Notes under the pieces: generated by a model
Seen by the model: the letters and a program-made list of their open reading frames with translations, nothing else
The model's database searches: none
What the model was told of the DNA's origin: nothing
Part shown: in pieces, positions 11,101-34,473 of the stretch
How positions within the stretch are numbered: the stretch's first letter is position 1
Layout: each line of letters opens with the position of its first letter
NCBI GenBank assembly: GCA_023412915.1
Contig: JAEZRE010000014.1
Location: 156,164-220,163, forward strand
DNA: 64,000 nucleotides
DNA from: Bacillota bacterium
GTDB lineage: Bacteria; Bacillota; Clostridia; Acetivibrionales; DTU013
Reading direction: 5' to 3'
Translations under genes and position numbers: made by a program

Positions 11101-12142
11101 CGAGGCAGGTCGCAGCGCCGCCGAACGGCTCTATTTCAGTAGGGTGATTGTGGGTCTCGTTTTTGAACATTACGAGCCAATCCTCCGGTTTGCCGTCGAT
11201 ATTGGCCTTCACTACGATGCTGCAGGCGTTTATCTCATCCGAAGCATCGAGGTCGTCGAGCTTTCCGCGCTTTTTAAGTTCCTTCATCGCGATAGTTGCC
11301 ATGTCCATCAGGCAAACGTCTTTTTCCCTGTCTCCATAGACATATTTTCTCGACTCGAAATATTTAGCGTAAACATCCTTTATCAATCCGTTATATTGAC
11401 CGTCTTCAAATTTAACGTCATTTATATTCGTCAGAAAAGTCGTATGTCTGCAATGATCGGACCAGTAGGTATCTATCATCCTTATCTCGGTGATCGTCGG
11501 GTCCCTGTGTTCCTTATCGTTGAAATACCGCCTGCAGAATTCCAGATCTTCCGCGGACATTGCCATGCCGAGTTCGTTTTGAAGCAAGGCTATTTCATCA
11601 GCGGTCTTGCCGCAAAAGCCCTTCATTGTTGAAACATCCCCGGGGTAGTCGAGCTCGACGTCCAGTGTTTCCGGCTTGTCCATCGAGGCCTCATGGCTTT
11701 CTACGGGGTTTATGCAATACGCCTTTATCCTTTCGAATTCTTCAGCAGTTATGCCGCCTTCAAGCACGATCAGCTTTGCAGCTTTGCAGCGCGGCCTTAC
11801 TCCGAGTGTCAGGAACTGAATACACTGTGACGCGGAATCGGCTCTCTGGTCATATTGCCCCGGCAGGTACTCTATCGCAAATACTTTTTCGTTTTCGGCA
11901 AGCTTCAGTGTTTCTTCATATATATTGTCAACCGGGGGTTCCGAGAAAATGACGCAGCGCGAAGCGCTGTATTCCTCATCCGTTATGTCCGATATGTCAT
12001 ACCGGTTTATGATCCTGACGCCGCTCAGGCCTTTAATACCGAGGTTTCCCCTAAGGTCCCTGAAAAGGCCCTGCGCTTCGACGTCGTAACCTTTCATCTT
12101 TTCTGCGAACACGCGTCTTACCTTATTTCTCTGCCCACTCAT
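8117..12142 (-). CDS. purL: phosphoribosylformylglycinamidine (FGAM) synthase, single-chain type with C-terminal glutaminase
   Basis: 1341 aa with two AIR-synthase-related halves (NHPTEIEPFGGAATCLGG, ERFDSTIGAGTVLMPFGGK) and the C-terminal GATase motif LGICNGFQAL. It carries an S/T/A-rich insert (see repeat 10110-10217). Confidence 0.95.
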   Translation of the reverse strand: MSGQRNKVRRVFAEKMKGYDVEAQGLFRDLRGNLGIKGLSGVRIINRYDISDITDEEYSASRCVIFSEPPVDNIYEETLKLAENEKVFAIEYLPGQYDQRADSASQCIQFLTLGVRPRCKAAKLIVLEGGITAEEFERIKAYCINPVESHEASMDKPETLDVELDYPGDVSTMKGFCGKTADEIALLQNELGMAMSAEDLEFCRRYFNDKEHRDPTITEIRMIDTYWSDHCRHTTFLTNINDVKFEDGQYNGLIKDVYAKYFESRKYVYGDREKDVCLMDMATIAMKELKKRGKLDDLDASDEINACSIVVKANIDGKPEDWLVMFKNETHNHPTEIEPFGGAATCLGGAIRDPLSGRSYVYQAMRVTGSGDPRTKVADTLAGKLPQRKITTGAAAGYSSYGNQIGLATGQVAEIYDEGYVAKRMEIGAVIGAAPKRNVVREEPKPGDVIILLGGRTGRDGCGGATGSSKEHDEKSLLTCGAEVQKGNPPTERKIQRLFRNETVSRMIKRCNDFGAGGVSVAIGELAEGLDIDLDKVPKKYEGLDGTELAISESQERMAVVVTKEDEERFIAAAAQENLEATQVAVVTDTGRLRMTWRGKVIVDLSREFLDTNGVKQNIDIEVKEPDEEGNYFRRRTGKKAASASASSSTSTSSTTLASSSTLTSSASPTSSAALTSSKAGTAAASNESAELNEIAAKWLEDLQKLELCGQKGLVERFDSTIGAGTVLMPFGGKYQLSPAEGMAAKLPVLKGDTDTCTLMSFGFNPAIAKWSPFHGAIYAIVEAAAKIAALGGDYRTARLTLQEYFEKPGKEPSRWGKPFSALLGAYYAQMKLKIAAIGGKDSMSGTFRDLNVPPTLVAFAVAVSDAGKTLSSEFKKPGSQVVMLKLVRDNNELPDFEQLDSIFVKVHQLAKADKILAAGTVREGGIAGAVSRMCFGNMIGVEIKADGLDLFAPDYGSIILELDAAEDVQSLFGRLPFAIIGNTMERPAVTIVKDDMQDACLSAGKQESKPGSKQDSVTLELEDMVENWMKPLERIFPTKTEAESGRAVTYDFYKETGDNNAKACTAKNMSRIQTAKPRVFIPVFPGTNCEYDSAKAFENAGSTADTFIVKNLTPESINETIQAMRQRISESRIIMFPGGFSAGDEPEGSGKFIATVFRNPYIKEAVMDMLLKRDGLILGICNGFQALVKLGLLPYGEIREMDAESPTLTFNSIGRHVSCMVRTRIASNKSPWFNNVKVGDMHTIAVSHGEGRFVAPEAAIAKLAANGQIATQYVDLDGKATYDIRYNPNGSMYAIEGITSPDGRVLGKMGHSERKGSNVCINVPGNKDQLLFEAGIRYFA
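10110..10217. repeat. 6 tandem copies of an 18-bp unit (ctcgaagttgaagttgaa-like) inside purL
   Basis: Unit starts at 10110, 10128, 10146, 10164, 10182 and 10200. On the minus strand it is in frame and encodes AASASASSSTSTSSTTLASSSTLTSSASPTSSAALTSS. Confidence 0.85.
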
Positions 12143-21399: not shown

Positions 21400-22491
21400 T
21401 CAGTATAAAGCCTTGATATCCTTCCGGTATTTTGCGATATCCTTCGAATTTTTCTTCTCGGCCATCCTTATGCTTTGATTGTGCTTGCTTTCGATGAAGC
21501 GCAGCTCCTTTTTCAGCTTTCTATAGCTCTCGAGGCGTACTGCAGGCAGCAGACCGCTCCTTACCGCAGCCAGCACAGCGCAGCCGGGTTCGTTTTCGTG
21601 ACTGCAATCCCTGAACCGGCATGAACCTCCGAGGCTCTCAACATCCTCGAAGGCACCTTGGAGGCCGCTATCGCTTTCCCAAAGCTGAAGCTCACGCATA
21701 CCGGGCGTGTCGATAATCATCCCTGCGTCCGGCAGCCTTACAAGATTCCGGTAGGTAGTGGTATGCCTGCCCCTGGAATCGTCCTCCCTGATTTCTCCCG
21801 TATCCATGATGGTTTCACCCGCAAGCAGGTTCGTCAGAGTCGATTTGCCGACTCCCGACGATCCGAGTATTGCGACTGTGCTGCCTACGCCAAGATACCG
21901 GCGCAACGCATCGGTCCCCTCGCCTGTTACCGCGCTTGCGGCAACTATGGGAACACCGAACGTTATCGCTTCGACTTCCCTGATTTTTTCCTCCGCGTCC
22001 TCGCTCAGATCCTTCTTGCTCAATACTATCACAGGCGCGGCGCCGCTTTCCCAGGCCATCGTAAGATACCTTTCCAGGCGTCGCAGGTTGAAATCCCTGT
22101 TGAGTGAATTTACTATAAAAACGTAATCAAAGTTTGCCGCAACTATCTGTTCCTGAACGACTGCGCCTGCAACCTTCCTTGAAAACCTGCTTTTCCTCGG
22201 CAGCAGCGCATGTATTACAGCACGGCCTTCCCGGGGCATCAGTTCCGCCGCCACCCAGTCGCCCACCGTCGGGTACGAATCGTAACCTGACGCCAGATGC
22301 CTGAATCTTCCCGAGACCTCTCCATGGATCTCCCCGGATTCGGAAATAAGCTTATACGAGCCTTTTTGCTCTTGAAGGACCCTGGCAGGCCTTTGCCCTT
22401 CTCCGCTTACTCCCGCGAATGCCTCCGCCCAGTAGTCGTTCCAGCCGTATTCATCCAGATTAATTGTTATTTCGCTTAATTTATCGTTCAT
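21400..22491 (-). CDS. rsgA: ribosome small-subunit-dependent GTPase A
   Basis: G1 motif GSSGVGKSTLTNLL, DTPGMRE, and C-terminal zinc knuckle CRFRDCSHENEPGCAV. Confidence 0.93.
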   Translation of the reverse strand: MNDKLSEITINLDEYGWNDYWAEAFAGVSGEGQRPARVLQEQKGSYKLISESGEIHGEVSGRFRHLASGYDSYPTVGDWVAAELMPREGRAVIHALLPRKSRFSRKVAGAVVQEQIVAANFDYVFIVNSLNRDFNLRRLERYLTMAWESGAAPVIVLSKKDLSEDAEEKIREVEAITFGVPIVAASAVTGEGTDALRRYLGVGSTVAILGSSGVGKSTLTNLLAGETIMDTGEIREDDSRGRHTTTYRNLVRLPDAGMIIDTPGMRELQLWESDSGLQGAFEDVESLGGSCRFRDCSHENEPGCAVLAAVRSGLLPAVRLESYRKLKKELRFIESKHNQSIRMAEKKNSKDIAKYRKDIKALY

Positions 22492-22529
22492 TCTACCATC
22501 CTTTATTTTATCTGAATTTACTAATCATT

Positions 22530-22700
22530 TTTCTTTGCCGGCTTTTACCGGCTATACTGCCTTAGCAGACTTTGCCGCTTTACTAATTGCCGGCTATACT
22601 GGCTACACCAGCTACACCAGTTACACCAGCTTTGCTGACATAACCGACTTAACGTGCTTTGCCGGCTTCTCCGGCCTTCCTGCTTTGTCTGCTGTCCGCT
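22530..22700. repeat. intergenic cluster of CTTTGCCGG(C)-core short repeats plus 3 x 9-bp ctacaccag tandem
   Basis: ctttgccggc at 22533 and 22657, ctttgccgc at 22570, aattgccggc at 22585. ctacaccag/ctacaccag/ttacaccag at 22603-22629. Confidence 0.6.
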
Positions 22701-22716
22701 CCAATCAACGCCGGTC

Positions 22717-23001
22717 TCAGTCCAACGCCAGAAGTACCCTTCTGGTATTGAGTACCTTGCGTATGCTGTCTTCCGACAGGTGATACATGTCCATCAGTTC
22801 CTGCACGCTGGCGCCTTCTTCATAAGCCCGACAGATATCGGTGTTTCTGGCCCTTATCATCAGCCTTGTGCCGTTAACGGCGCCCCAACCGGCCCTGTTG
22901 TTTTCCTGCCTCGGTATATAAAGCAGCTCGCCCTGTACATAATTCTGCAGCTGCTCCAGCAATGTTTTGGGTAGTACGTCCTTTCCATTGATATATTTCA
23001 T
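22717..23001 (-). CDS. small HTH protein, Mor/CD3324-like putative transcriptional regulator
   Basis: 94 aa. MKYINGKDVLPKTLLEQLQNYVQGELLYIPRQ... with a C-terminal HTH-like ASVQELMDMYHLSEDSIRKVL. Family assignment is from memory of similar clostridial proteins. RBS GGGAGG. Confidence 0.6.
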   Translation of the reverse strand: MKYINGKDVLPKTLLEQLQNYVQGELLYIPRQENNRAGWGAVNGTRLMIRARNTDICRAYEEGASVQELMDMYHLSEDSIRKVLNTRRVLLALD

Positions 23002-23041
23002 ATATGCCTCCCGATTTAACTAAGTAAACAATTCATTGCAA

Positions 23042-23078
23042 CAAAAAACTCCACGAGGCAAGCAACCTTCGTGGAGTT
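23042..23078 (-). terminator. intrinsic terminator located 41 nt upstream of the Mor-like gene ATG
   Basis: Minus strand reads aactccacgaagg-ttgcttg-cctcgtggagtt followed by TTTTTT (11-12 bp stem with one bulge). Confidence 0.75.
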
Positions 23079-23340
23079 CATATGGGCATAAAAAAAGCAC
23101 GATAACCGCTACCATGCCATTTTGTCCATTACATTCATTTTTGGTCAAAGGTTATTTCCTGTTAGGTCTGCCGATGAATACGAATATAAACCCGTTAACA
23201 CAGGTCATAGCGATAAAAAAACCCTCGCGGTATCCATCAGCCTATATTCAGTTATACGACTTCCACCTCAACAACCAATGCAAAATTATAAACCGTCACA
23301 AAAACAACTCCTTTCGCCAAAATTGAGTATTACATATTTT

Positions 23341-23370
23341 ATTATAGAACAGTTAACTTCTTACAGTCAA
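23341..23370 (-). promoter_or_regulatory. sigma-A promoter firing towards the Mor-like gene (start of a ~330-nt leader or ~290-nt sRNA)
   Basis: Minus strand reads TTGACT (23370-23365), 18-nt spacer, TATAAT (23346-23341). Confidence 0.6.
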
Positions 23371-23518
23371 GTACCGAATTAGCAGAAAGAATTATTATAT
23401 TAATTCTTTCCGCTATTCTGCTTAATGACTGAGTGATTATACTGCCGATCATTTCCTTAAGCTTTTTGAAATCTCAGACGCTGCGCTCGAGGTCTGCATG
23501 TTTGTATTTCGTGGGGCT

Positions 23519-24241
23519 TCATGGCTGCGTGATTACGCGGCCTACCAGTTCCTCAAGCTCATTGAAATCCCTGACTCTGCGCTCGAGCTCGGTGTGTTTG
23601 CCGTAACGGTCGAGGCATATCGTGTACATCCCCAGCTCTGCGGGCTTGACGTAGTCGTTGATATAATCGTCGCCTACGAAGATGACCTGTTCGGGCTCGA
23701 CTCCGGCCAGTTGCAGCGCCTTGCCGTAAATAGCGGGATGCGGCTTCACAACGCCTTCCTCGACCGACGTCACGACAAATTCGAATCGGTCTTCAATCCC
23801 GGTCAGTTCGAGCAGTTCCTGTATGCCTCCCATCACCATGAAGTTTGAAACGACGCCCAGTTTGAGGAGTTTGCCCAGTTTCGGAAGAACGGCCCGAACA
23901 TCCTCCCGCAGGTAACATACGGATTTGTAATTCTTCCAATAATTATCCCGAAGCCTTTCCGCGGTGGCTTCCATCCTTCCGTAACCAAGCTCCGGCAGGC
24001 TTAATTCGACGAGTTTAAGAAAGCGAAGTTTCATTTCATAGTCGGCGAACTCGGGCAGCTGAGCTGCAAGCTCCTGCCTGGATAGCATATAATACCGAAA
24101 AAACGTATCGAAGTCCTCCCAGAGTTCCTCGACGCCGGAGCCTTCGAAGGCCCAGGCGGCGTAATCCCTCCGGGTTGGCAGTACGTGCAGGTCTACAAGG
24201 GTTTCCATACAGTCGAAAAATATATATTTGAAAATACTCAT
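23519..24241 (-). CDS. HAD-superfamily hydrolase
   Basis: Motif I IFFDCMETLVD (nucleophile Asp; second position is not Asp, as in dehalogenase-like members). C-terminal FVGDDYINDY (motif IV). Confidence 0.85.
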   Translation of the reverse strand: MSIFKYIFFDCMETLVDLHVLPTRRDYAAWAFEGSGVEELWEDFDTFFRYYMLSRQELAAQLPEFADYEMKLRFLKLVELSLPELGYGRMEATAERLRDNYWKNYKSVCYLREDVRAVLPKLGKLLKLGVVSNFMVMGGIQELLELTGIEDRFEFVVTSVEEGVVKPHPAIYGKALQLAGVEPEQVIFVGDDYINDYVKPAELGMYTICLDRYGKHTELERRVRDFNELEELVGRVITQP

Positions 24242-24344
24242 CTGCTGGTTCCTTTCGGTCTATCCATAAATTTCACATACTGCCTTGCCGTCGCCCGTTG
24301 CGTGCATTATAATGATTTGGTACATAACCTTTAGGAGGGCGATT

Positions 24345-24545
24345 ATGGGTACGGTCAAGGACTTTAAAAACATAACAAACTGGGACGAGCTGTTCGATAT
24401 GACGAACGAATACCTCACCTTCCTGCTGGAGCAGCATCAGATAACTCACGAGCTTGTTATCAAAACGACTTACGATATAATTAAAAACGCAGGCTACAAC
24501 TATTCCATTGATGACATCGAAAAGGAATATTACAGCGGGTTTTAA
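24345..24545 (+). CDS. small hypothetical protein (66 aa)
   Basis: ATG 24345 is preceded by AGGAGGG with good spacing. No family recognised. Confidence 0.45.
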   Translation: MGTVKDFKNITNWDELFDMTNEYLTFLLEQHQITHELVIKTTYDIIKNAGYNYSIDDIEKEYYSGF

Positions 24546-24605
24546 CGGAAAAAGCAGCGGCCGGCGCCGCGGTTCTCATTTACCCGGAGCCTGTTTACGC
24601 GGATC

Positions 24606-24839
24606 TTACTTGCCCGGAGTATAACCCGGCTTCTTGTATATCGTTTCAGGCTTACCTATAATATCGGGCTCGTAAACCTCTTTATTCCATTTCTCCGGCT
24701 CGAATTCCTCTATTGCGATCGACACTGAACTCTCGTTCGCCGAAAGGCTTTCAGTGATAGCCTTTGTGACCTTTTCAACCATATCCTTTTTCATTTCCTC
24801 GCTTCTGCCCTTGTACATTTTTACAATAACGTGCGGCAT
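24606..24839 (-). CDS. 4-oxalocrotonate tautomerase family enzyme
   Basis: Starts MPHVIVKMYKGRSEEMKKDMVEKVTKAITESL (catalytic Pro1 after Met removal). RBS AGGAGG lies 8 nt upstream of this ATG. Confidence 0.85.
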   Translation of the reverse strand: MPHVIVKMYKGRSEEMKKDMVEKVTKAITESLSANESSVSIAIEEFEPEKWNKEVYEPDIIGKPETIYKKPGYTPGK

Positions 24840-25020
24840 GTAAATTACCTCCTGGTATATTTGAAACAATTATACCATTACCTTGCGAGCAAATAAATAA
24901 AGAGCTTTAGTTAAGGTATTTTACTGACATATGATGTGCACATAACACGCGATTCATTAATAATGGTCACGCTCTTTTGCAGCAGACACTACACAGCTTG
25001 TTGAAGATAGCTAAGCAAAT

Positions 25021-25053
25021 TTCTTAAACTTGAAATTTTCTTAAACATGAAAT
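25021..25053. repeat. direct repeat 2 x 16 bp (ttcttaaacWtgaaat, period 17) upstream of the LuxR-type gene
   Basis: 25021-25036 ttcttaaacttgaaat and 25038-25053 ttcttaaacatgaaat. The repeat ends 26 nt before ATG 25079. Confidence 0.7.
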
Positions 25054-25078
25054 ACAATTAGAAAAAAATGCAAGAGGA

Positions 25079-26743
25079 ATGGTCCTGAATTACATCAGTG
25101 TACGGGAAGCTGCAGTTAAATGGGGTATAACAAGCCCGATGGTCAATTATCACTGCGTAGCCGAACGAATCGAAGGCGCACAGAAGATCGGCAATATGTG
25201 GATCATGCCGAAGAATGCGGTAATACCTGCCGATAGGCGGCGTAAGAGACAGATAAGCCAACCATCGTGCGAAAGAGGTGACAACGTGACTGATAACAGA
25301 GTGAATCAGCGTACAACACTGATAATCAATAACCGCCGATTATCCGTCATTGTCTTTTCCCTGTTTTTTTCCTGGCTACTGGCCTTCCCCTTCGAAGGAC
25401 GGATTTTATACTCACTCGCGGACTACAACAACGTCTCGGCCAATTCGTTTGTTTTCGGAACAATGGCCGCTCATTTTGCCGGGCTGCTTGTCTGCGGCTT
25501 CTTTGTCAAAAACATGCGAACAGCCAAAAGGCTAATGCTGTTTTCCATCGCATTTTGCATCTTAGCGTCCGGCGTGTTTTTCCGCCCACCCTCCTATCTG
25601 TGGACAGGAGCACTGCTTTCGGCGGCATTTTTGGTCGGCTGCTGCGTGGCGGCATGGGGTTTTTATTTCAAAAATTGTACACCGAAGGACGTTCGCATCA
25701 ACACCATGGCTGACGGCCTCATCTGCTCAAACATCCTGATGATTGCACTTAATATGGCAGCCATTCATATTTCCCCGCACGTCGGTTTAGCTTTTTCCAT
25801 GTTGATACTGGGGGCGGCGTTTTTATTCGCACTTTGGCTCCCCAAAGAGGAAGTGCCGGAAGACTCTCCGTCTTCTCAACAGGGGGAAATTTATGTCAGT
25901 AAAGCCGGTCCTCTCACTTTTCTGTGCCTGTTTATCATGGTTATCACCATCAATTCGGGCCTCATGTATCAGGTGCAGGGTCCAGCTTTCGCCCACCTGG
26001 AATGGCTGACAAGCTTTTATTGGGCCACACCATATATCGTAGCCCTGTTCATTATGCGGAATCTGCCCCGAAAAATAAACCGGGCATATATCCTCTACAT
26101 AGCTATTGCCATGATTGGCTTTTCCTTTATTGCCTTTCTGTCCCTTGACCGCTCATGGGCAAGCTACCTTGTGGTCAACACTCTGATGCTGGGGGCCTGT
26201 GGCGTGTACGACCTGTTTTGGTGGAGCATCCTGGGCGAAATGCTGGAGTTGGACAAAAATCCCGCCCGAATCATGGGAGTCGGCCTCTCGGCGAATGTCC
26301 TGGGTGTTCTGCTGGGTGGACTCATTGGAAACGCGATTAATGTCGCGGACGGAAAAAGCTATAATTCCACTTTGCTGGCGTTTGGCGTAGTGTGCTTAAC
26401 TCTTGTCCTGCTTCCCCCCTTGCATGCACGGCTGACTACCCTGCTCAAAAATCATTTCTATTTAACTGTAATTACCGAAATGTCGACCCAGGAACAAACC
26501 CGGCTGATTTGTGAGTTTAATATAATGGAGAAGCTCACCGGACGCGAAGGTGAAATCGCCGCTTTGCTCATCAAGGGCAAGACCTATCGGATGATTGCCG
26601 GCGAGTTGCATGTGAGCGAAAACACTGTAAAAACGCATGTGAAAAACATTTATTCCAAAGCCGGAGTTCAAAGTAGGACGGAGCTGATGAATCTGCTTCT
26701 GGATATACACATCCCGTCCACGGAATCCGGCGCCCCACGATGA
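25079..26743 (+). CDS. membrane-embedded one-component regulator: N-terminal HTH, ~12 TM helices, C-terminal LuxR/FixJ HTH
   Basis: N-terminus ISVREAAVKWGITSPMVNYHCVAERIEGAQKIGNMWIMPKNA (excisionase/MerR-like HTH). About 12 hydrophobic helices in a 6+6 arrangement. C-terminus LTGREGEIAALLIKGKTYRMIAGELHVSENTVKTHVKNIYSKAGV (LuxR HTH). Confidence 0.85.
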   Translation: MVLNYISVREAAVKWGITSPMVNYHCVAERIEGAQKIGNMWIMPKNAVIPADRRRKRQISQPSCERGDNVTDNRVNQRTTLIINNRRLSVIVFSLFFSWLLAFPFEGRILYSLADYNNVSANSFVFGTMAAHFAGLLVCGFFVKNMRTAKRLMLFSIAFCILASGVFFRPPSYLWTGALLSAAFLVGCCVAAWGFYFKNCTPKDVRINTMADGLICSNILMIALNMAAIHISPHVGLAFSMLILGAAFLFALWLPKEEVPEDSPSSQQGEIYVSKAGPLTFLCLFIMVITINSGLMYQVQGPAFAHLEWLTSFYWATPYIVALFIMRNLPRKINRAYILYIAIAMIGFSFIAFLSLDRSWASYLVVNTLMLGACGVYDLFWWSILGEMLELDKNPARIMGVGLSANVLGVLLGGLIGNAINVADGKSYNSTLLAFGVVCLTLVLLPPLHARLTTLLKNHFYLTVITEMSTQEQTRLICEFNIMEKLTGREGEIAALLIKGKTYRMIAGELHVSENTVKTHVKNIYSKAGVQSRTELMNLLLDIHIPSTESGAPR

Positions 26744-26760
26744 ATAATGGATTTCCAGGT

Positions 26761-26790
26761 CCCTCACCTAAAAAGGTGAGGGGCCTTTTT
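26761..26790 (+). terminator. intrinsic terminator after the LuxR-type gene
   Basis: ccctcacc-taaaaa-ggtgaggg followed by gccTTTTT. Confidence 0.8.
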
Positions 26791-26876
26791 ATATGAGCTC
26801 ACCCGCTTTGGTGACGCAAACACAGCCCTGCCTTTTGTAAAATGAAGAAAATACACCCGTTGAAAGAGGAATTCAT

Positions 26877-27398
26877 TTGAAAAAAATTGCGTGGTACAAA
26901 CGGTTATGTTTACGTGCCTGTGTCGCATGTGCGGTCACTTTGGCGGCGTTGCTGATCTGGCAGCCGTCACATTGGAAATGGTATGTGATTGCGCTTCTTT
27001 CAACAGGGCTTGTTGCTGTGTCCCTTTTCTTGACTCTGCGCAAAAAACTCATAGCCGCATTGCTGATTGTCGAGAATCAGATTCTGCATATTCAGCCTGC
27101 CGTCTTTAGTGAGCGTGGCGGAAAGAAGGAAATCGAAGTTCATCCCTGCGAAACCGTAGAGATGTTTGTTTCCTGCTTCGGCATCCTTCTGGGCGCCAAA
27201 ATCATTAAATTCAACCAGGAGGACATCCGGCTGAAGGCTGTTGAAATCGGGCGGGACTATCTCTCTATCGACTATGGTACGGACACGGACATCCGGAATA
27301 TACGGCTGATCCATGCCAGACCCGACAACGCCATTCTTGCGGACATTATTGACAAGTTTCGTTATGAAACCGGAATTACTCCGATTATTACGGAATAG
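26877..27398 (+). CDS. hypothetical 2-TM membrane protein with a ~110-aa soluble C-terminal domain (TTG start)
   Basis: TM helices CVACAVTLAALLIW and WYVIALLSTGLVAVSLFLTL. RBS AAAGAGGA lies upstream of TTG 26877. No family recognised. Confidence 0.6.
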   Translation: MKKIAWYKRLCLRACVACAVTLAALLIWQPSHWKWYVIALLSTGLVAVSLFLTLRKKLIAALLIVENQILHIQPAVFSERGGKKEIEVHPCETVEMFVSCFGILLGAKIIKFNQEDIRLKAVEIGRDYLSIDYGTDTDIRNIRLIHARPDNAILADIIDKFRYETGITPIITE

Positions 27399-27501
27399 AG
27401 CTGCAAATACACATTGTGTGGCATTTTCAAGGAACAGCCCTTTGAAATAAGAGTGTGAGATAGGCATATAAAAGAATTCATGATAAAGAGAGGTTTTAGG
27501 A

Positions 27502-29784
27502 ATGAATAGCAAAAAAACTCTATGCGGCTTGCTTATTATGTCAATACTCCTGTCCTTGACCGGCGTACTTACCGGTTGCGGGAAAGCAAATAACCTTGAA
27601 AAGAAGCCCGAAACATCGGCAATTGTGGCCGAGGGTCTACTAAACGCCGATAATCTTACCCTTTCGCACCAGGGCTTGAGCATGAGCATAAGCCCGGTCA
27701 CATTCAGTTCGGACGTTGAGGCAAAAATCGCAAAAGTCTCTGACGCGCCGGCTCTCGACGGTGACAGTGATATTAAGCTTGAGGTCTACGACTTCTCGCT
27801 TTCGGGACCCGGCATACCATCGGGCGTGATCGAGCTGATGATACCCTTAAAGCTTGCTGCCGGCACGCTTCCAGGCGCGGCGTACCTTAACGAAGATAGC
27901 GGTAAATGGGAGCCGGTTTCATTTAGATACGACAGCTCCGCCGAGGCGGTGGTGATAACAACAGATCACCTTTCCAAATACGGCGTATTCTCCATAAGCG
28001 GCGAAGGTGAGCGCAAAGCTCGCATTCAGTTTTTGGGACTTGGGGGTGCATCCGGCAACGAAAATTTTGTGGCTGCTGTTGAAGAATACGCATCTGGTGG
28101 CGTACCGGCTTCCAAGTGCGTTGAGATCGGTGCCGGGGCCGTGGGTGACGCTCTGCAGCTAAACGGAGACATCCTTGGAAATACCGCGCAGAGCGCCGGT
28201 TATTTAGCCTATGGCGATGATGTGATGGCTACTCTCGGAGATCATCTTGGCAGCATCGGTTTGATGGTCTCAGTAGTCCAGATCGGCGTCAACATCGCGG
28301 ACGGCAAAATCCACGAAGCCCTGGTCGGAAGCATGAAAACAGCTTGGACCTACATAATGGGCAAAGCAGCCTCAAAACTGAGCAGTTCGGTGATGTCGGC
28401 AAGTATGGCGGCCGTTGCAATTGTGGACTACTCCATTAACAAATTCGGTACAGAAGCTCTGGAGGGCCGGGCGAGTATCTACCGCGACGCCTATTCGATT
28501 TATTACCAAAAGGGCGAGGCCGGTTACCGTTCTCCGACAGACTGGTATAACAATCTCTATCCCCTATTCTCCTCAGGCAACTTAAGCGAAAGTGAGTTAA
28601 AGGCCGAGATAGACCGGATGGTCACAGCGCACTGCGAGGAATTTTGGGGCGGCGGGAACAAGGATGGCGTGGATGCCTATGTAGATGAGGCACGAAAAAA
28701 AATGGCCTGGACCGGAGGCCAAGCCGGCTTAAACGACACGGTTCGCAATGAAATCAGCGCTGAACGCCGGGCCATCGTTTACAACGATATCTTACCCGTC
28801 GTGTTTAGCCAGATCGCTAAAAAACTAAATCTCGAAAATGAAAAAAAACTGCTCGCCGAATATCAGAAACTCTCCGCTTATATGAACACGCCCATTTCTT
28901 TCACCCTGACCGACATGCAAAAGAGCTATGTCGGCTATACCGTACGCTTTGCGCCTTTAAACGGCAGAGCAAAAGCAGAAGACTGGACGGGAACGATCAA
29001 CGATAGCGGTCTGGCCAGGACAACATTTACCCTATACGGCCATATGTATGCCGGAGCACCCCATACCCTTGAGATTTATGAGCCCGGCACAAATCCAGAC
29101 GGAGGCGCCCCTGTCAAGACTGTTACCTTTAAAGTGACACCCCCGAATGTAAACGTCATTATTGATGATGCTCCCCCGGCAAAACCGGAGCAAAGCGACA
29201 ACTCCTCCAAACCGCAGACTGAACAGGCTGGGCAGCAGCCCGCAGGTAAAAAATACGCTTGGGTGCTGGTGGATACGGTTACAAACGATGCAAAAGATGA
29301 CATAGATCATATGAACAGCGGCGGCGTGTATCAGGCGACTGCCTCAGCCTTGCCGGGCAGTTACACATACTCGCAAAAATATATCGGAGAAACCGACACT
29401 TATCCCGACCCTGATCAGATAAACGGAGAGAGCTATGCCATGAAGCTTGACTTCTCGGTTCCGCCCACGGTGATACAAGGCGGTGAAACGGTAACGCTAA
29501 GCTTTAACCTGGCTTTCACGGAGCAAAATGTCTCCTATTTTGACGGAAATGGAAGCTGCCGGGCTGATATAGATTCGGCGCGCTTTGTCAACAAGGCCGG
29601 CAAAAGCTCATTTGAAATCTACTGTTCGGCAAAGTATAGTCAGAAGAATGTACTGTCCGTCAGCGACACCCTCACTGCAACGGCGCCCTCCGGCGGTTCG
29701 GAAGGAGGTCGCATCGAGATCTGGACTGGCGGACCGAGCGGAAAGCTTGGCACGACGTATGTGTATGAATGGCGTGCACAATGA
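27502..29784 (+). CDS. large hypothetical lipoprotein (760 aa)
   Basis: Signal peptide plus lipobox LLSLTGVLTGC. Central hydrophobic Gly/Ala/Ser-rich helical stretch, a P/Q/S-rich linker (PPAKPEQSDNSSKPQTEQAGQQP), and a C-terminal beta-rich region. RBS AGAGAGG. Confidence 0.8.
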   Translation: MNSKKTLCGLLIMSILLSLTGVLTGCGKANNLEKKPETSAIVAEGLLNADNLTLSHQGLSMSISPVTFSSDVEAKIAKVSDAPALDGDSDIKLEVYDFSLSGPGIPSGVIELMIPLKLAAGTLPGAAYLNEDSGKWEPVSFRYDSSAEAVVITTDHLSKYGVFSISGEGERKARIQFLGLGGASGNENFVAAVEEYASGGVPASKCVEIGAGAVGDALQLNGDILGNTAQSAGYLAYGDDVMATLGDHLGSIGLMVSVVQIGVNIADGKIHEALVGSMKTAWTYIMGKAASKLSSSVMSASMAAVAIVDYSINKFGTEALEGRASIYRDAYSIYYQKGEAGYRSPTDWYNNLYPLFSSGNLSESELKAEIDRMVTAHCEEFWGGGNKDGVDAYVDEARKKMAWTGGQAGLNDTVRNEISAERRAIVYNDILPVVFSQIAKKLNLENEKKLLAEYQKLSAYMNTPISFTLTDMQKSYVGYTVRFAPLNGRAKAEDWTGTINDSGLARTTFTLYGHMYAGAPHTLEIYEPGTNPDGGAPVKTVTFKVTPPNVNVIIDDAPPAKPEQSDNSSKPQTEQAGQQPAGKKYAWVLVDTVTNDAKDDIDHMNSGGVYQATASALPGSYTYSQKYIGETDTYPDPDQINGESYAMKLDFSVPPTVIQGGETVTLSFNLAFTEQNVSYFDGNGSCRADIDSARFVNKAGKSSFEIYCSAKYSQKNVLSVSDTLTATAPSGGSEGGRIEIWTGGPSGKLGTTYVYEWRAQ

Positions 29785-30395
29785 ATGGCGCCACGAATAA
29801 AAGTTTGACAGGCATCGGCATGGCGCGGATCATACGCTGGCAAACCAGCGTGCCGATTTTCAAGAACCCCGTCATCCTGCGGCAGCTTACTATTGCCTTG
29901 GGCATACCGCTTGGGCTGGTCGCCCTCATCATCGGGCTTAGCCCGGGCAAAGGCACGGACACCCTGTACGCACTCGTTCTGATCGTGGCATGGCTTGTGC
30001 TGGCATGGCTATTTATAATGGCGGTTTACCGGGGCAAATATGAAGCAGAGTTCGTGCTTGACAGCAAAGGTGCCCTCTGCCGTACACAAGCTGAACAGAA
30101 AAAAAAGAACCGGGTAATCAACACACTGAATGTCATACTAGGCCTGCTTACCGGCAAACCTGCCGTCGCCGGCGTGGGGTTGCTGGCACAGTCACGGCAG
30201 AAGGTTCTTATCCGATGGAATCGTATTAGAAAGATAAAATACAAGCCCAAAAGTCACACCATCCTGCTGTACGGTGGCTGGACGGAGCAGATCGCACTGT
30301 TCTGCACACAAGATAACTACGCGCTGGTGGAGAAATTTGTCCTTCAGAAAATCCATCGGATGGATGAGGTGAACCGGAATCTGAAGAAATTATGA
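29781..30395 (+). CDS. hypothetical 2-TM membrane protein, translationally coupled to the lipoprotein gene
   Basis: ATG 29781 overlaps the upstream TGA (ATGA). TM helices LTIALGIPLGLVALIIGL and LYALVLIVAWLVLAWLFIMAV. Confidence 0.65.
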   Translation: MNGATNKSLTGIGMARIIRWQTSVPIFKNPVILRQLTIALGIPLGLVALIIGLSPGKGTDTLYALVLIVAWLVLAWLFIMAVYRGKYEAEFVLDSKGALCRTQAEQKKKNRVINTLNVILGLLTGKPAVAGVGLLAQSRQKVLIRWNRIRKIKYKPKSHTILLYGGWTEQIALFCTQDNYALVEKFVLQKIHRMDEVNRNLKKL

Positions 30396-30554
30396 AGTAC
30401 TGAATGGACTCTTGATGCTCCCGATATAGTTAGCGTAGACTTGTTCAAAATCTTATCTATCTGCGATTCTCTTTTCGGCAGTCTTGATTTCATGCTTGCA
30501 TTTTTCGTCTCCTGCCTTGTTCTCGGTCTTGGCGAAAGCTCTGTTACCAGTCAA

Positions 30555-30592
30555 ATAACAAAACCCTGCAAGCTTTAAGCTTGCAGGGTTTT
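30555..30592 (-). terminator. intrinsic terminator downstream of tRNA-Thr
   Basis: ccctgcaagc / gcttgcaggg perfect stem. The minus strand continues with TTTTGTT. Confidence 0.75.
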
Positions 30593-30595
30593 GTT

Positions 30596-30671
30596 TGGAG
30601 CCAACTGCCGGATTCGAACCGGCGACCTGCGCATTACGAATGCGCTGCTCTACCAACTGAGCCAAGTTGGC
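30596..30671 (-). tRNA. tRNA-Thr (anticodon CGT), CCA encoded
   Basis: Hand-folded cloverleaf: acceptor gccaact/agttggc, anticodon stem gcgca/tgcgc with loop ttCGTaa, T-arm gccgg-ttcgaat-ccggc. 76 nt. Confidence 0.95.
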
Positions 30672-30692
30672 GTTTATAATTGCGCAAAAAGA

Positions 30693-30721
30693 ATTATACT
30701 CTATAACTCGGAAAAACACAA
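30693..30721 (-). promoter_or_regulatory. sigma-A promoter of tRNA-Thr
   Basis: Minus strand reads TTGTGT, 17-nt spacer, TATAAT. It lies ~20 nt upstream of the mature 5' end. Confidence 0.6.
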
Positions 30722-30800
30722 GAGTTCTTCTTAAATCTTGCATTATAAGATTTTACTATTTTTAAGTTTGCGTGCAAGCTTCAGGCGCACGACCTTTCCT

Positions 30801-30922
30801 GCAGCCGTTCACTCGCCCAGCAGTCATCCTGAAATGACTGTCGCTTCTCGCTTCACCTTTTTTCCGCAGCCGTTCACCCGCCCAGCAGCCGCCTTGAAAT
30901 CTCAGCCGCTTCGTGCTTGACC
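30801..30922. repeat. tandem ~65-bp duplication; the second copy is the 3' end of mtaD
   Basis: 30801-30857 vs 30866-30922: 44 of 57 positions identical by hand alignment. Both copies are flanked by (c)tttcct-like sequence. Confidence 0.7.
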
Positions 30923-32184
30923 CTTTCCTCGTCGATCGTCTTCAGCTCGCGATGCTCCATCAATATATTACCGTCGACAATCACCGTATCGACGTCGCTT
31001 CCCTGCGCCGAATATACGACCGCCGAAAACGGGTCGTTCATCGGGATGAGATGCGGCTTGTCCGTGTCGAGCAATATCATGTCGGCTTTCATTCCAGCCC
31101 TTATAACGCCTGTCTCATTGCCGAAGCCTATAGCGCGCGCACCATTGACGGTCGCCATCATGAAAGCCTGACGTGCGCTCACAAGTTCTGGATTCTGCGC
31201 TGCGCCTTTATGTATAAGCGCTGCTAGATGCATTTCTTCAAACATGTTCAGGTTGTTGTTGCTGGCGGCTCCGTCGGTGCCCAACGCAACATTCACCCCG
31301 GCCTTCTGCATTTCAGGCACGGGCGAGATCCCGCTGCCGAGCTTTAAATTGCTTGTGGGGTTGTGCGCCGCGTTAACGCCGTACTTTTTAAGCATGGCGA
31401 TATCTTCATCCGAAATATGCACAAGATGCGCTCCTATGACAGGAACGTCAAATATGCCTGTATCGGCGCATATTTCAACAGGCGACTTGCTGTACTTCTC
31501 AAAGCTGTCCTTCCGCTCCTTTGCTGTTTCGAGCAAATGTATATGAATGCCTGTGCCAAGCCTTTTAGCCAGGTCTGACGCGCCTCTGAGCGAGGCCTGA
31601 TCGAACAGGTAGGTCGAATGCACCTCAATGTAGACTTTAATCCTGCCGTTGGAAGAACCGTGCCACTTCCGGTAATACTCCTCGCACTCTTCGAAAACAT
31701 CGACTGCCTTGAGTTCTCCATCTGAATGGAATTCCACCGGGCTTCTTGAAAGATTCGCCCTTATTCCCGACTCCGAGATAGCCTTGGCTGTCGAATCCAT
31801 ATGCAGATACATATCCGCCAATGCCGTCGTACCGCTTTTGATCATCTCAGCCGCGCCCAGACTGGTTCCCCAGTATATATCCTCGTCGGTGAGCCGGTCT
31901 TCCATCGGGAATATTTTATTGAACAGCCATTCGTGCAGCGGAAGATCGTCGGCCGCATTCCGCATGAGTGTCATCGCGCAATGCGTATGGGCATTCGCAA
32001 AGCCTGGCATGGCAAGTCTGTGCCTGCCGCTGATCCTTTTGCCGGGCTTGAAATCTTCCGGGGCACGACCGGAAGGCACAATGAACGAAATCCTTCCATC
32101 GGCTATTCCCATATCGGCATTCTTTATGAATTCGGTCGCCGGGTCTGCAGTTAATATATCGATGCCTTCAATCAGTATATTCAT
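30874..32184 (-). CDS. mtaD: amidohydrolase, 5-methylthioadenosine/S-adenosylhomocysteine deaminase type
   Basis: MNILIEGIDILT... with metal-binding FANAHTHCAMTLMR and the MtaD/Tm0936-like overall pattern. ATG 32184 lies 6 nt after AGGAGA (the ORF extends to 32229 but without an RBS). Confidence 0.85.
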   Translation of the reverse strand: MNILIEGIDILTADPATEFIKNADMGIADGRISFIVPSGRAPEDFKPGKRISGRHRLAMPGFANAHTHCAMTLMRNAADDLPLHEWLFNKIFPMEDRLTDEDIYWGTSLGAAEMIKSGTTALADMYLHMDSTAKAISESGIRANLSRSPVEFHSDGELKAVDVFEECEEYYRKWHGSSNGRIKVYIEVHSTYLFDQASLRGASDLAKRLGTGIHIHLLETAKERKDSFEKYSKSPVEICADTGIFDVPVIGAHLVHISDEDIAMLKKYGVNAAHNPTSNLKLGSGISPVPEMQKAGVNVALGTDGAASNNNLNMFEEMHLAALIHKGAAQNPELVSARQAFMMATVNGARAIGFGNETGVIRAGMKADMILLDTDKPHLIPMNDPFSAVVYSAQGSDVDTVIVDGNILMEHRELKTIDEERVKHEAAEISRRLLGG

Positions 32185-32286
32185 TCGATTTCTCCTGGTT
32201 TTCATACTGGCAAAACCGCCCCCGGTCAAAATGACAGGGGGCAGTTAATATGCCAGGTTAATGCGCGTTCCGATTCAAAATTATTA

Positions 32287-33549
32287 TCAGGTTCCACTCT
32301 CCCAGGAGGACAGGTATTTCTCCTGTTCTTCCGTGAGGACGTCTATCGAAACGGCCATGGATTCGAGCTTCAGCTTCGCTATTTCATGGTCGAGCTCGCC
32401 CGGCAGCAGGTAAACCTTTTTGTCCATGCTTTTATTGTTCTTGACGATATATTCCGCGCCCAGCGCCTGGTTTGCGAAGCTCATGTCCATAACCACGGCA
32501 GGGTGTCCTTCGGCGGCGGCGAGATTGAGCAGCCTGCCCTCTGCCAGCAGGAACAGCTTACGCCCATCCTTCATAGTGTACTCTTCAACAAAATCACGTA
32601 CCGTCCTCTTTGAAGCCGACAGCTTCTCGATCGCGCCTATGTTTATCTCATCGTTGAAGTGGCCGGAATTTGCTATTACCACGCCGTCCTTCGCAAGCTT
32701 GATATGCTTTTCGTCAACTACGTTCAGATCGCCCGTTACGGTAATGATGATGTCGGCGAAGCTCATTGCGTCTTCGAGCTTCATTACCCTGAAGCCTTCC
32801 ATTACGGCTTCTATAGCTTTGATGTGATCGACTTCGGTAACGGTGACATTTGCGCCCATGCCCTTCGCCCTCATCGCCAGCCCTTTTCCGCACCAGCCGT
32901 AGCCGCAGACTACTAAATTCTTACCCGCAAGCAGTATGTTTGTGGCTCTCTGCAGGCCGTCGAGCGTGCTCTGGCCTGTTCCGTAACGGTTGTCGAAAAG
33001 GTGCTTGGTTTCCGACTCGTTGACAGCGATGATCGGAATACGCAGCGCTCCGTCCTTTTCCATGCTCTTTAGGCGGATAACGCCTGTAGTGGTTTCCTCG
33101 GTCCCCCCTATTACGTTTTTCAGGTGGGTTTCAGCGTAATCCTTGTGGAGAAGCCCGACAAGATCACAGCCGTCGTCCTGGGTCATATCCGGACCGTGTT
33201 CGATTGCAGCCAGAAGGTGCTTGTAGTAAGTATCCCTGTCCTCGCCCTTCCTGGCGAAAACTGAAATACCGTAATCCTCAACGAGCGAAGCCGCTACGTC
33301 ATCCTGTGTCGAAAGCGGATTTGAAGCGCAGAGCACGATATCCGCTCCGCCTGCCTTCAAGGTTCGCATGAGATTTGCCGTTTCGGTTGTAACGTGCAGG
33401 CAGCAGCTCATTTTTATTCCGGCAAGCGGTTTTTCCTTTTCAAATCTTTCTCTGATCATTTTCAAAACGGGCATCTGGTTGTCCGCCCATTCGATCCTCA
33501 ATTTGCCCCTCGGCGCTAAAGCATTGTCCTTGATATCGCATTTTACCAT
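32287..33549 (-). CDS. ahcY: adenosylhomocysteinase (SAH hydrolase) family
   Basis: 420 aa with NAD-binding GYGWCGKGLAMRAKGMGANVTVTEVD, TTTGV and HFNDEI motifs typical of AhcY. Confidence 0.93.
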   Translation of the reverse strand: MVKCDIKDNALAPRGKLRIEWADNQMPVLKMIRERFEKEKPLAGIKMSCCLHVTTETANLMRTLKAGGADIVLCASNPLSTQDDVAASLVEDYGISVFARKGEDRDTYYKHLLAAIEHGPDMTQDDGCDLVGLLHKDYAETHLKNVIGGTEETTTGVIRLKSMEKDGALRIPIIAVNESETKHLFDNRYGTGQSTLDGLQRATNILLAGKNLVVCGYGWCGKGLAMRAKGMGANVTVTEVDHIKAIEAVMEGFRVMKLEDAMSFADIIITVTGDLNVVDEKHIKLAKDGVVIANSGHFNDEINIGAIEKLSASKRTVRDFVEEYTMKDGRKLFLLAEGRLLNLAAAEGHPAVVMDMSFANQALGAEYIVKNNKSMDKKVYLLPGELDHEIAKLKLESMAVSIDVLTEEQEKYLSSWESGT

Positions 33550-33672: not shown

Positions 33673-34473
33673 TTATTTTTCGGCGACCAGTATGAATATG
33701 CCGTCGTCTCCTTTTTTAGATGTTGCCTTCTTACCGACCGTATCTATCTGTACATTTTTGAAACCGGATTTTACGAACCATTCCTTGACCGTATTATGTG
33801 AAAAGCCCTGCCAGACGTCATGCATCCTCTCCTTGAACTCGATGTTGCCGTGTTCCTTCAGATCTGCAAGAAACACCCTCCCGCCCGGCTTCAATACCCT
33901 GTACATCTCTCTTACCGCCAGTATTGGTTCTTCGATGTGATGCAGGAACATGTTCGAACAGACGAGATCCGTGCTTTCCTCCGCGAGCGGAAGATCACAG
34001 CCGTCGCCCTCGACTGTCCTTATGTTTGACAAACCTTCCTGCGCGGCTTTTTTATTCAGCTCCTTGAGCATTTCACCCGATATATCCACGGCAATAACCT
34101 TTTTAACCTTGGGTGAAACGGCCCGCGAAAGATAACCGTCGCCTGCACCAAGGTCCGCCAGAGTTATGCCGGCGTTCAGCAGTCCTGTTCCGAGCAGTCT
34201 GCCTATCACCGCCTCATCGTAAAAATCCCCGCGCATGTTCTCCCATTCGGGCGCAACACTGTCGAAAAACTCCCTGGAATCGCTGTCGCTGGAGGAATAC
34301 TGCATTGAATCCCCCGATGAGAGCCACTGTATGAGCGCTTGCCTGCTAAAACGCCATTCCCTGCCTATTTTTCTTGCAGGGACCTTTTCTTCCTTAAGCA
34401 GCTTTATGAACGTCTTTATGCTGACGTTGAACAGTTCTGCGGCCTCTTCCATATTGAGTATTTCTTTTTCCAT
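33673..34473 (-). CDS. excisionase-type HTH domain fused to a class I SAM-dependent methyltransferase
   Basis: N-terminus LNMEEAAELFNVSIKTFIKLLKEEKVPARKIGREWRFSRQAL. Methyltransferase motif I LADLGAGDGYLS, post-I VIAVDIS, and FLHHIEEP. Confidence 0.85.
   Translation of the reverse strand: MEKEILNMEEAAELFNVSIKTFIKLLKEEKVPARKIGREWRFSRQALIQWLSSGDSMQYSSSDSDSREFFDSVAPEWENMRGDFYDEAVIGRLLGTGLLNAGITLADLGAGDGYLSRAVSPKVKKVIAVDISGEMLKELNKKAAQEGLSNIRTVEGDGCDLPLAEESTDLVCSNMFLHHIEEPILAVREMYRVLKPGGRVFLADLKEHGNIEFKERMHDVWQGFSHNTVKEWFVKSGFKNVQIDTVGKKATSKKGDDGIFILVAEK

Follow-up and report, generated by a model that had tools for sequence, protein, structure and literature searches.

Autoproteolytic domains are known from eukaryotes as GAIN (in adhesion G-protein-coupled receptors, GPCRs, and in PKD1), as ZU5/UPA (in PIDD and the FIIND of NLRP1), and as Nup98-type HFS sites. 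Bacterial counterparts of the adhesion-GPCR GAIN domain, named Microbial Autoproteolysis INducing (MAIN) domains and typified by Bacillus subtilis YfkN, were described by Brogan and Rudner in a preprint of May 2026 (bioRxiv 10.64898/2026.05.12.724683). Here we compare with these systems a block of four same-strand genes, A, B, C, and D (positions 25079-30395, + strand, in the table of open reading frames, ORFs), that lies in a 64-kb stretch of DNA from a Clostridia-like Bacillota bacterium (assembly GCA_023412915.1, contig JAEZRE010000014.1, positions 156,164 to 220,163), hereafter the window. Taking all parts of the reading together, we hold with moderate confidence that the block is a reduced version of a conserved envelope cluster of Clostridia, in which the regulator A activates B-C-D and C is a self-cleaving, lipid-anchored MAIN protein.

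MAIN domains combine a GAIN/ZU5-type fold with an HX(S/T) motif, and cleavage between X and S/T, after which the fragments stay associated, has been shown for YfkN and several others; nearly all MAIN domains assayed did cleave (Brogan and Rudner, 2026). Virtually all of the proteins are built in the order signal peptide, enzymatic or adhesion domains, MAIN domain, and C-terminal wall anchor, the anchor being of the sortase, S-layer homology (SLH), or wall type and the N-terminal part being shed, and some of them carry toxin domains (Brogan and Rudner, 2026). No signalling has so far been linked to the anchored fragment, and the main text of the preprint covers neither lipoproteins or other N-anchored examples nor operon context; its discussion raises a parallel with the RsgI anti-sigma factors of Clostridia, which are autoproteolytic, force-sensitive surface sensors with a SEAL domain (Brogan and Rudner, 2026). 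For regulator A, the closest described proteins are DadR, HcdR, and CadR of Eggerthella lenta, which are LuxR-type transcriptional activators with 12 transmembrane (TM) helices (Dong et al., 2022; PMC9734109).

Results

Lipoprotein C and its MAIN-like domain

Gene C resembles genes for MAIN proteins in encoding a secreted, envelope-anchored product (signal peptide plus lipobox), and 90% or more of 74 homologues keep its Cys26. A full-length AlphaFold2 model based on these 74 sequences (predicted local distance difference test score, pLDDT, 70.9) contains a β-sandwich at residues 39-166 (pLDDT about 90), a helical region at 189-461 (pLDDT about 30 for residues 270-321 and 70-90 for the rest), a confident β-domain at 464-554, and then a less confident β-rich tail, while a separate model of residues 37-178 had a pLDDT of 86.6. 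In Foldseek searches against the Protein Data Bank (PDB), the top match of full-length C was the GAIN domain of BAI3 (4dlo_B, probability 1.0). The same structure came first for the separate domain model (E 1.1e-3, probability 1.0, TM-score 0.57), followed by the ankyrin ZU5 domains 4d8o, 6m3p, and 3ud2 (TM-score 0.54-0.60, probability 0.98-1.0).

C has in common with MAIN domains both a GAIN_B/ZU5-type β-sandwich and an H-hydrophobic-S motif in the turn that leads into the last strand. In the model, the HLS of C forms the turn between the last two strands (149-154 and 159-166), and the surrounding motif, T154-D-H156-[L/F]-S158-K-Y160-G-V-F163, is invariant or nearly so in the 74 homologues, with H, S, and L/F each present in 74 of 74. 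TDH[L/F]SKYGVF is also kept in paralogues, named C2 below, at 30% identity. Such a combination of modelled fold and motif is the signature of GAIN/ZU5-type cis-autoproteolysis, and C probably cleaves itself between L157 and S158. The likeness extends to the eukaryotic GAIN and ZU5 domains, with which C shares the β-sandwich, the H-[L/F]-S cleavage-type motif at the β-turn, and the tethered last strand; its DHLSKYG also resembles HFSKYG, which we take to be the corresponding sequence of Nup98. Unlike eukaryotic GAIN, C has neither a helical GAIN_A subdomain N-terminal to the sandwich nor a 7TM domain, its setting is bacterial and extracytoplasmic, and profile-level sequence similarity to the eukaryotic domains was not detected in PDB and Pfam searches.

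Over residues 3-554, C is 54% identical to WP_128425374, a protein of Gudongella oleilytica. Table S3 of the MAIN preprint contains this protein, with a GAIN-fold domain ("ZU5") first, and the entries of that table derive from PSI-BLAST searches seeded with the MAIN domain of YfkN (Brogan and Rudner, 2026). An earlier, sequence-only reading of this DNA had placed C in an undescribed system, a view that does not survive the MAIN/GAIN-like character of its N-terminal domain and the presence of this homologue in the preprint dataset. The same table holds a second Gudongella oleilytica protein, WP_128425018, in which a GAIN-fold domain likewise comes first and is followed by helical-type DPAM assignments; the two entries suggest paralogous N-anchored MAIN proteins in one genome.

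Where C departs from described MAIN proteins is in the arrangement of its parts. Its lipobox anchor lies directly N-terminal of the domain, which starts about 11 residues after the lipidated Cys, and about 600 residues follow the predicted cut, which is the reverse of the published order. Pfam scans of C showed no sortase, SLH, or wall-binding domain. This architecture is not peculiar to the window. C has 80 close homologues, all unnamed, and a profile of its N-terminal domain, searched against 1.84 billion representatives, matched 478 cluster representatives at E <= 1e-3. We pooled the best 150 of these 478 with the 80 close homologues into a family set of 224 proteins, of which 216 have H[L/F]S and 203 have the helical module directly after the MAIN-like domain. 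By N-terminal context, classed by regular expressions and hydropathy, 110 of the proteins begin with a lipobox-like segment, 56 with a short signal or TM segment, 23 with one or more zinc ribbons plus a TM helix, and 29 with a long ectodomain. As far as these sequences tell, the conserved unit of the family is the MAIN-like domain, the helical module, and the β-domain, with a variable N-terminus. The C-terminal region of C (~585-760) is conserved in a close subclade only; elsewhere query coverage is about 70%, and in some homologues PKD or other domains replace it.

The long ectodomains include Inhibitor_I69 with Peptidase_C10 and BspA-type leucine-rich repeats (LRR), a CAP domain, and Cu_amine_oxidN1. 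Three proteins of 1400-1850 amino acids (aa) (P0350, P0424, and P0425) combine Inhibitor_I69, Peptidase_C10 (streptopain-like), BspA-type LRR, the MAIN-like domain, and the helical module, and architectures matching theirs appear in Table S3 from the Bacteroidota Alkalitalea and Anaerophaga (Brogan and Rudner, 2026).

The helical module itself had no Pfam match at E <= 10 beyond a chance hit to NifU_N, its profile retrieved nothing relevant from the PDB, and in the full-length Foldseek search it had no significant match. It contains two Gly/Ala/Ser-rich hydrophobic helices (248-266 and 295-311), in which the sequence-only reading had seen a possible pore-forming segment; the profile and Foldseek searches returned no match to a known pore former. 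The hydropathy of the two helices is about 1.5, compared with 2.1-2.9 for the TM helices of B and D and the signal peptide of C, and the equivalent helices of distant family members contain charged and polar residues. For both reasons, they are unlikely to be constitutive TM helices, and we regard them as the probable core of a soluble bundle rather than as TM segments.

The gene cluster in relatives

Gene neighbourhoods and tblastn searches with all components revealed a larger cluster in Clostridia, with the order H-A-B-(E)-(F)-C/C2-D-G. H encodes a protein of 63-69 aa with an HTH_17/HTH_59-type helix-turn-helix (HTH), E one of about 550 aa, F a 227-aa protein whose N-terminus holds a zinc ribbon, and G a protein of about 140 aa; C2 (816-839 aa) is 34-38% identical to C and has a zinc ribbon and a TM helix as its anchor instead of the lipobox. 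The window carries the most reduced version seen, in which E, F, and G are absent and H is fused to A. A tblastn search of the window for pseudogene remnants of E, F, and G found none.

Orthologues of A, B, C, and D stand in the same order in related, Oscillospiraceae-like genomes (loci L007/L023, L008, L022, L063, and L134; L numbers denote loci of relatives, except that L020, an ENA scaffold, and L021, from Logan, are gene calls of the window locus). The sequence-only reading would have fallen had the four genes never occurred together elsewhere, and on this point it stands; its picture of a self-contained four-gene system does not, given the larger cluster and the lack of A, B, and D around C relatives at 36 of 40 genome loci; the remaining four are L022, L023, and L024, of the close subclade, and the distant L054. 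At L135, the arrangement fits A-B-C-D as judged from gene sizes and order. Between B and C there is nothing in the window, F alone in L022 (C 80% identical; order A-B-F-C-D-G), and E plus F in L007 and L016, while L134 (C 89% identical) has two extra genes of 305 and 91 aa there and G after D. At L135 and L136, where C is 72% identical, E and F are replaced by a gene for a 489-aa FecR-domain protein (L135:2652-4121), FecR being a domain of the sensor or anti-sigma type, and three small genes.

Linkage differs from gene to gene. Of 29 B loci, 24 have A at most 4 kb upstream. At 26 loci, the 9 kb downstream of B contained F 16 times, G 10 times, D and E nine times each, and C or C2 four times. 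D directly follows C in L007, L008, L016, L022, and L134, and follows it after one zinc-ribbon gene in L004; other genomes have D without C, usually with the 140-aa gene G behind it. Stand-alone C loci occur in Proteocatella, Gudongella, Sedimentibacter, Peptococcaceae, Anaerolineaceae, Bacteroidaceae/Prevotella, Oceanirhabdus, and others, and distant C genes have only unrelated genes around them. The block divides into a cassette of A and B, a D(-G) pair, and C as facultative cargo. At L054, from a metagenome-assembled genome of Eubacteriaceae, the genes at 8238-9635 and 10043-11587 form a pair in which that of an A-like regulator (35% identity) directly precedes that of a distant C (34%), with neither B nor D detected; this pair looks like an independent or ancient association.

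Regulator A and the A-B intergenic region

The description of A as a 554-aa, double-HTH, 12-TM regulator held up, with a clear C-terminal GerE domain, a weak N-terminal HTH, and some 10-12 hydrophobic helices within residues 88-450 (at least 10 distinct segments in a Kyte-Doolittle scan). Multiple NarL/FixJ-type NCBIfam matches coincide with the GerE stretch, PADLOC matched A through its HTH alone, and Pfam gave a weak MFS_1 match at residues 283-445. The 554-aa ORF is called identically in two assemblies, and orthologues 72-83% identical to A lie upstream of B in relatives. At the N-terminus, direct matches are weak (HTH_59, E 0.041; an excisionase PHROG, 2e-5); residues 1-56 are 54% identical (tblastn) to the 69-aa H protein of L016, which itself matches HTH_59 at 4.3e-5 and HTH_17 at 5.2e-4. 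The H module is in a frame separate from A in L016 and L018, is missing in L007, L008, and L022, and is fused in-frame in the window.

Like DadR, HcdR, and CadR, A has ~10-12 N-terminal TM helices followed by a C-terminal LuxR/GerE HTH, and its gene adjoins genes presumably under its control; A is assigned to the 12-TM LuxR class by this architecture. In contrast to the E. lenta regulators, its host belongs to Bacillota (Clostridia-like) and not to Coriobacteriia, the neighbouring genes encode envelope proteins instead of catechol-metabolising enzymes, an additional HTH_17/59 module is fused to the N-terminus, and a 2-TM protein gene, B, is a constant partner.

By aligning A-B intergenic regions of relatives, we found a palindrome that the window carries as two identical TCACC-N6-GGTGA copies 35 bp apart between A and B, the sole exact copies in 64 kb. 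Allowing one mismatch, the window has 5 sites against 0.86 expected, the other three being outside the A-B region. Among distinct A-B spacers of relatives, 16 of 39 contain such a twin palindrome with 5-nucleotide (nt) arms 34-35 bp apart, compared with 13 of 7800 shuffles, and at the 13 loci inspected it lies directly 3' of A-type genes. Stand-alone C loci, 473 kb in all, contained no copy. Across divergent loci, the two copies change their half-sites together (TCACA, TCAGT, CTATAC, CTACCC).

These patterns point to the twin palindromes as a candidate operator of A before a putative B-C-D promoter. The TAAAAT hexamer is kept in intergenic regions of relatives, and the centre of palindrome 2 lies ~31 bp upstream of it (26838-26843) and would lie ~43 bp upstream of the presumed start site, an activator-like position. 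Copy 1 would double as A's terminator and as part of the putative operator. H is a less likely binder of the palindrome than A, since several loci keep the sites without H.

Additional exact TCACC-N6-GGTGA copies occur further downstream in the cluster at L018 (10187-10202) and L073 (11159, 11534, and 13593). The extra copy in L018 lies at the end of a gene for a metallo-β-lactamase-fold protein, just upstream of a second GerE regulator gene. Such copies suggest more than one A-controlled promoter per cluster.

Genes B and D

B, C, and D have no curated match in Pfam, NCBIfam, PADLOC, or PHROGs, in agreement with the sequence-only reading, which had recognised no family in them; sub-threshold noise in the library scans of A-D comprised TgpA_N, Borrelia_P13, DUF1345, TcpE, and FERM_C. 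The families of B and D exceed that of C in size and in conservation. B has 370 homologues, all about 173 aa long, and profile searches against Pfam and the PDB gave no match. Public calls of B disagree, with 137 aa from an internal start on the ENA scaffold (L020; P0204) and 173 aa in Logan (L021). Because conservation begins at residue 1 in 31 aligned homologues, the TTG start holds, and the 137-aa call is probably too short; several homologues also start at a non-ATG codon.

D has two TM helices, a weaker third hydrophobic stretch, and a conserved cytoplasmic domain, and at least 288 homologues with 60-76% identity. A profile search with D against all PDB sequences gave no meaningful match. 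The sequence-only reading had suggested that B and D might be bacterial PH-like; towards this, D has a sub-threshold match to the PH-like FERM_C (E 0.026, with 15.4 bits where the cut-off is 23), and B had none. The idea that B and D share an architecture applies to the gross 2-TM layout and not to homology: BLASTP found nothing and hhalign gave a probability of 2%, and we therefore rejected B and D as paralogues flanking the lipoprotein.

The ATG of D at 29781 overlaps the TGA of C (ATGA) in CAATGAATGG, from which a stoichiometric coupling of the two genes had been proposed. This overlap is present in the window, yet it is not conserved: D starts 9-32 nt after C in relatives. It is doubtful as the true start of D, because most homologues, at 186-190 aa, begin at the counterpart of M14 (ATG 29820, 35 nt past the stop of C), where the starts of 28 aligned homologues fall.

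Features of the locus and its flanks

All four ORFs were found where the sequence-only reading had placed them, and so were the terminator, lipobox, and ATGA overlap, as well as the tRNA-Thr gene beside the block; they are listed with the other features in Table 1. An Rfam scan of 24400-31000 matched the tRNA only, with no riboswitch or leader. The flanks of the block show no synteny with the flanks of the cluster in relatives. We considered and rejected a horizontally acquired island, as GC content (0.46-0.53) resembles that of the flanks and no integrase is among the ORFs listed for 22000-33500.

Upstream, between genes for the GTPase RsgA and a HAD hydrolase, a 94-aa ORF (22717-23001, - strand) has a weak CENP-B_N-type HTH match and probably encodes a small DNA-binding protein. 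Beyond the tRNA, an amidohydrolase (451 aa, Amidohydro_1/3) and an S-adenosylhomocysteine hydrolase (420 aa) are encoded at 30874-33549 (- strand); these are housekeeping genes of the methyl-cycle salvage type. They are followed at ~33673-34473 (- strand) by a gene for a 266-aa protein in which HTH_17 is fused to an S-adenosylmethionine-dependent methyltransferase domain, a second HTH_17 fusion near A.

Table 1. Coordinates of features in and next to the A-D block (positions in the 64-kb window).
Feature	Position	Strand	Basis or remark
Promoter-like site, TTGAAA-17-TACAAT	25030-25058	+	Predicted; consensus scan 10/12; ~20 nt before ATG 25079
Gene A, 554 aa	25079-26743	+	LuxR-type regulator, 12-TM LuxR architecture, fused N-terminal HTH
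HTH_17/HTH_59-like N-terminal module of A, residues 1-56	25079-25246	+	Separate gene H (63-69 aa) in relatives
GerE/LuxR DNA-binding HTH of A, residues 485-538	26531-26692	+	Pfam PF00196, E 4e-15, 55.6 bits
Intrinsic terminator of A	26757-26786	+	13-bp stem, 8 GC pairs, T-run
Palindrome copy 1, TCACCTAAAAAGGTGA	26764-26779	+	Exact match; core of the terminator stem of A
Palindrome copy 2, TCACCCGCTTTGGTGA	26799-26814	+	Exact match; putative operator of A at the B promoter
-10-like TAAAAT, putative B-C-D promoter	26838-26843	+	Read from sequence
Shine-Dalgarno AGAGGA	26865-26870	+	Read from sequence
Gene B, 173 aa, TTG start	26877-27398	+	2 TM helices and ~110-aa cytoplasmic β-rich domain
Gene C, 760-aa lipoprotein	27502-29784	+	ORF; signal peptide; lipobox LTGC, Cys26
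MAIN/GAIN_B/ZU5-like β-sandwich of C, residues ~37-168	27610-28005	+	AlphaFold2 model, Foldseek
H156-L157-S158, predicted cis-autoproteolysis site (cut L157/S158)	27967-27975	+	Motif conservation, β-turn position
Conserved α-helical module of C, residues ~180-462	28039-28887	+	Includes Gly/Ala/Ser-rich hydrophobic helices 248-266 and 295-311
Conserved β-domain of C, residues ~463-556	28888-29169	+	pLDDT about 85-91; kept in 178/224 family members
Variable C-terminal β-rich region of C, residues ~585-760	29254-29781	+	After P/Q/S linker
Gene D	29781-30395	+	204 aa from ATG 29781, or 191 aa from ATG 29820
tRNA-Thr(CGU)	30596-30671	-	ARAGORN; Rfam tRNA, 72.3 bits; downstream limit of block

Discussion

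Two elements of the block were already known, namely the regulator class of A and the family of C, a close homologue of which is in the supplementary list of the MAIN preprint. What is new is the N-anchored, inverted MAIN architecture, the constant helical module, the operon context, and the putative twin operator embedded in a terminator. Within our preferred reading, A would be a one-component, membrane-embedded LuxR-type transcription factor with a small fused HTH, whose own transcript would end at the hairpin, and dimers of A, responding to a membrane or small-molecule signal, would bind the twin palindromes and activate the B-C-D operon. C would be exported and lipid-anchored at Cys26, with the MAIN-like β-sandwich as its first folded domain, and would cut its own chain at L157/S158 by means of the invariant His156/Ser158 pair. 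The lipid-anchored N-terminal piece of ~13 kDa may then keep hold of the ~65-kDa C-terminal piece through the inserted strand 159-166. The latter piece, consisting of the helical module, the β-domain, and the variable β-rich tail, would be exposed at the cell surface, from which it could be released once force or unfolding extracts that strand. From their linkage, B may be a constant companion that works with A, and D, which is paired with G elsewhere, may be a separate conserved membrane component; any contact of B or D with C is purely conjectural.

Several observations weigh against this reading. A profile of the N-terminal domain of C, searched against PDB sequences and Pfam (E <= 10), found nothing relevant, and for this reason the assignment of C to MAIN rests on fold, motif, and the preprint table; YfkN-type proteins were likewise absent from the eight profile matches scanned against Pfam, which thus provided no direct sequence bridge. 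C does not follow the canonical order of cargo, MAIN domain, and C-terminal wall anchor, an order that is an architectural generalisation of the preprint and not a criterion at the level of the fold. In the 29 family members whose long N-terminal regions are of enzyme or adhesin type, either fragment could be the anchored one, and self-cleavage is a prediction throughout the C family. C stands alone in most genomes and must therefore be able to function independently of A, B, and D. On the regulatory side, palindrome 1 is also an ordinary terminator, the H protein or another factor could bind in place of A, and the promoter elements are consensus-level guesses.

The most serious alternative, possible although we give it clearly less credence, is that A-B and the palindromes form a cassette that drives whichever envelope genes lie downstream, with C as a passenger and D(-G) as an independent pair, so that there would be neither a B-C-D complex nor a stoichiometric partnership of C and D. 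The changing content between B and C fits this well, ranging from no gene at all through F, E plus F, and the genes of 305 and 91 aa to the FecR-domain gene with three small ones, as do the scarcity of C-type genes downstream of B (4 of 26 loci), the absence of A, B, and D at 36 of 40 C loci, the occurrence of D-G without C, and the poor conservation of the ATGA overlap. Chance company would not, however, predict that D lies downstream in all four of the checked A-B clusters that have C or C2, or that the distant homologue of C at L054 is again found directly behind an A-like regulator.

Two further alternatives concern C itself. Its N-terminal domain could be a non-cleaving ZU5/GAIN-like spacer in which HLS is kept for folding, leaving C as a single lipid-anchored chain. 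Some ZU5 domains, including that of ankyrin, do not cleave, ankyrin ZU5 is among the structural matches, and the Foldseek E-values are modest (1e-3 to 1e-2). We nevertheless find this improbable: the His and Ser do not vary in 74 sequences and persist in 216 of 224 proteins, even where identity falls to about 20-30%, while the flanks vary, the motif lies exactly at the β-turn used by GAIN and MAIN, and cleavage was the rule among the MAIN domains assayed (Brogan and Rudner, 2026). Less probable still, and to our judgement very unlikely, is that C is a membrane-active (pore-forming) toxin or a protein of bacteriocin type, for which B and D would provide immunity or export, even though a Gly/Ala/Ser-rich hydrophobic helical hairpin (residues 248-311), flanking genes for small 2-TM proteins, and the toxin domains on some MAIN proteins might bring a toxin to mind. 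The helical module matches no pore former in Pfam, PDB-sequence, or Foldseek searches, and its helices are charged or polar in distant members and fall short of the hydropathy of clear TM helices (about 1.5 against 2.1-2.9). Most C genes, having no B or D nearby, would lack immunity, and D, which is 60-80% identical across families and occurs without C, does not behave like an immunity gene; PADLOC returned no match for B, C, or D.

Our preferred reading invites comparison with RsgI, a parallel that is conceptual: in both cases, a surface autoproteolytic β-turn domain is encoded beside a dedicated transcription regulator. The differences are that the fold of C is GAIN/ZU5-like instead of SEA-like, that sensor and anti-sigma factor form one chain in RsgI, whereas C and A are products of neighbouring genes, and that most C genes have no such regulator. 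A more far-reaching idea, which we regard as a long shot, is that C proteins are force-sensitive tethers whose MAIN-domain dissociation is read out by the 2-TM proteins and A, giving a tethered-agonist-like coupling to transcription; its basis is gene adjacency. In that equally remote scheme, C would link the membrane, through its lipid anchor, to the wall or an external surface through its variable C-terminal β domains, and dissociation might, with no better odds, expose the last strand or free the conserved helical module. If true, it would be a bacterial counterpart of adhesion-GPCR tethered-agonist signalling, with MAIN cleavage coupled to transcription, beyond shedding. Should C instead act as other MAIN proteins do and A prove to be an ordinary activator, the result would be a useful annotation of several hypothetical-protein families and no surprise.

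The locus extends the 12-TM LuxR class, studied so far in Coriobacteriia, to Bacillota and supplies a candidate DNA site for it. It also points to a sizeable MAIN subfamily in which the anchor is N-terminal and beside the domain, and the domain is joined to one conserved helical module; about half of the 224 members are lipoproteins. In some Clostridia, the C gene belongs to a putative operon that follows the gene of a membrane-embedded LuxR regulator and a candidate twin operator. Such loci offer a tractable case for studying cleavage of N-anchored MAIN proteins and release of their C-terminal part, the role of the helical module, and the possible coupling of MAIN cleavage to gene regulation.

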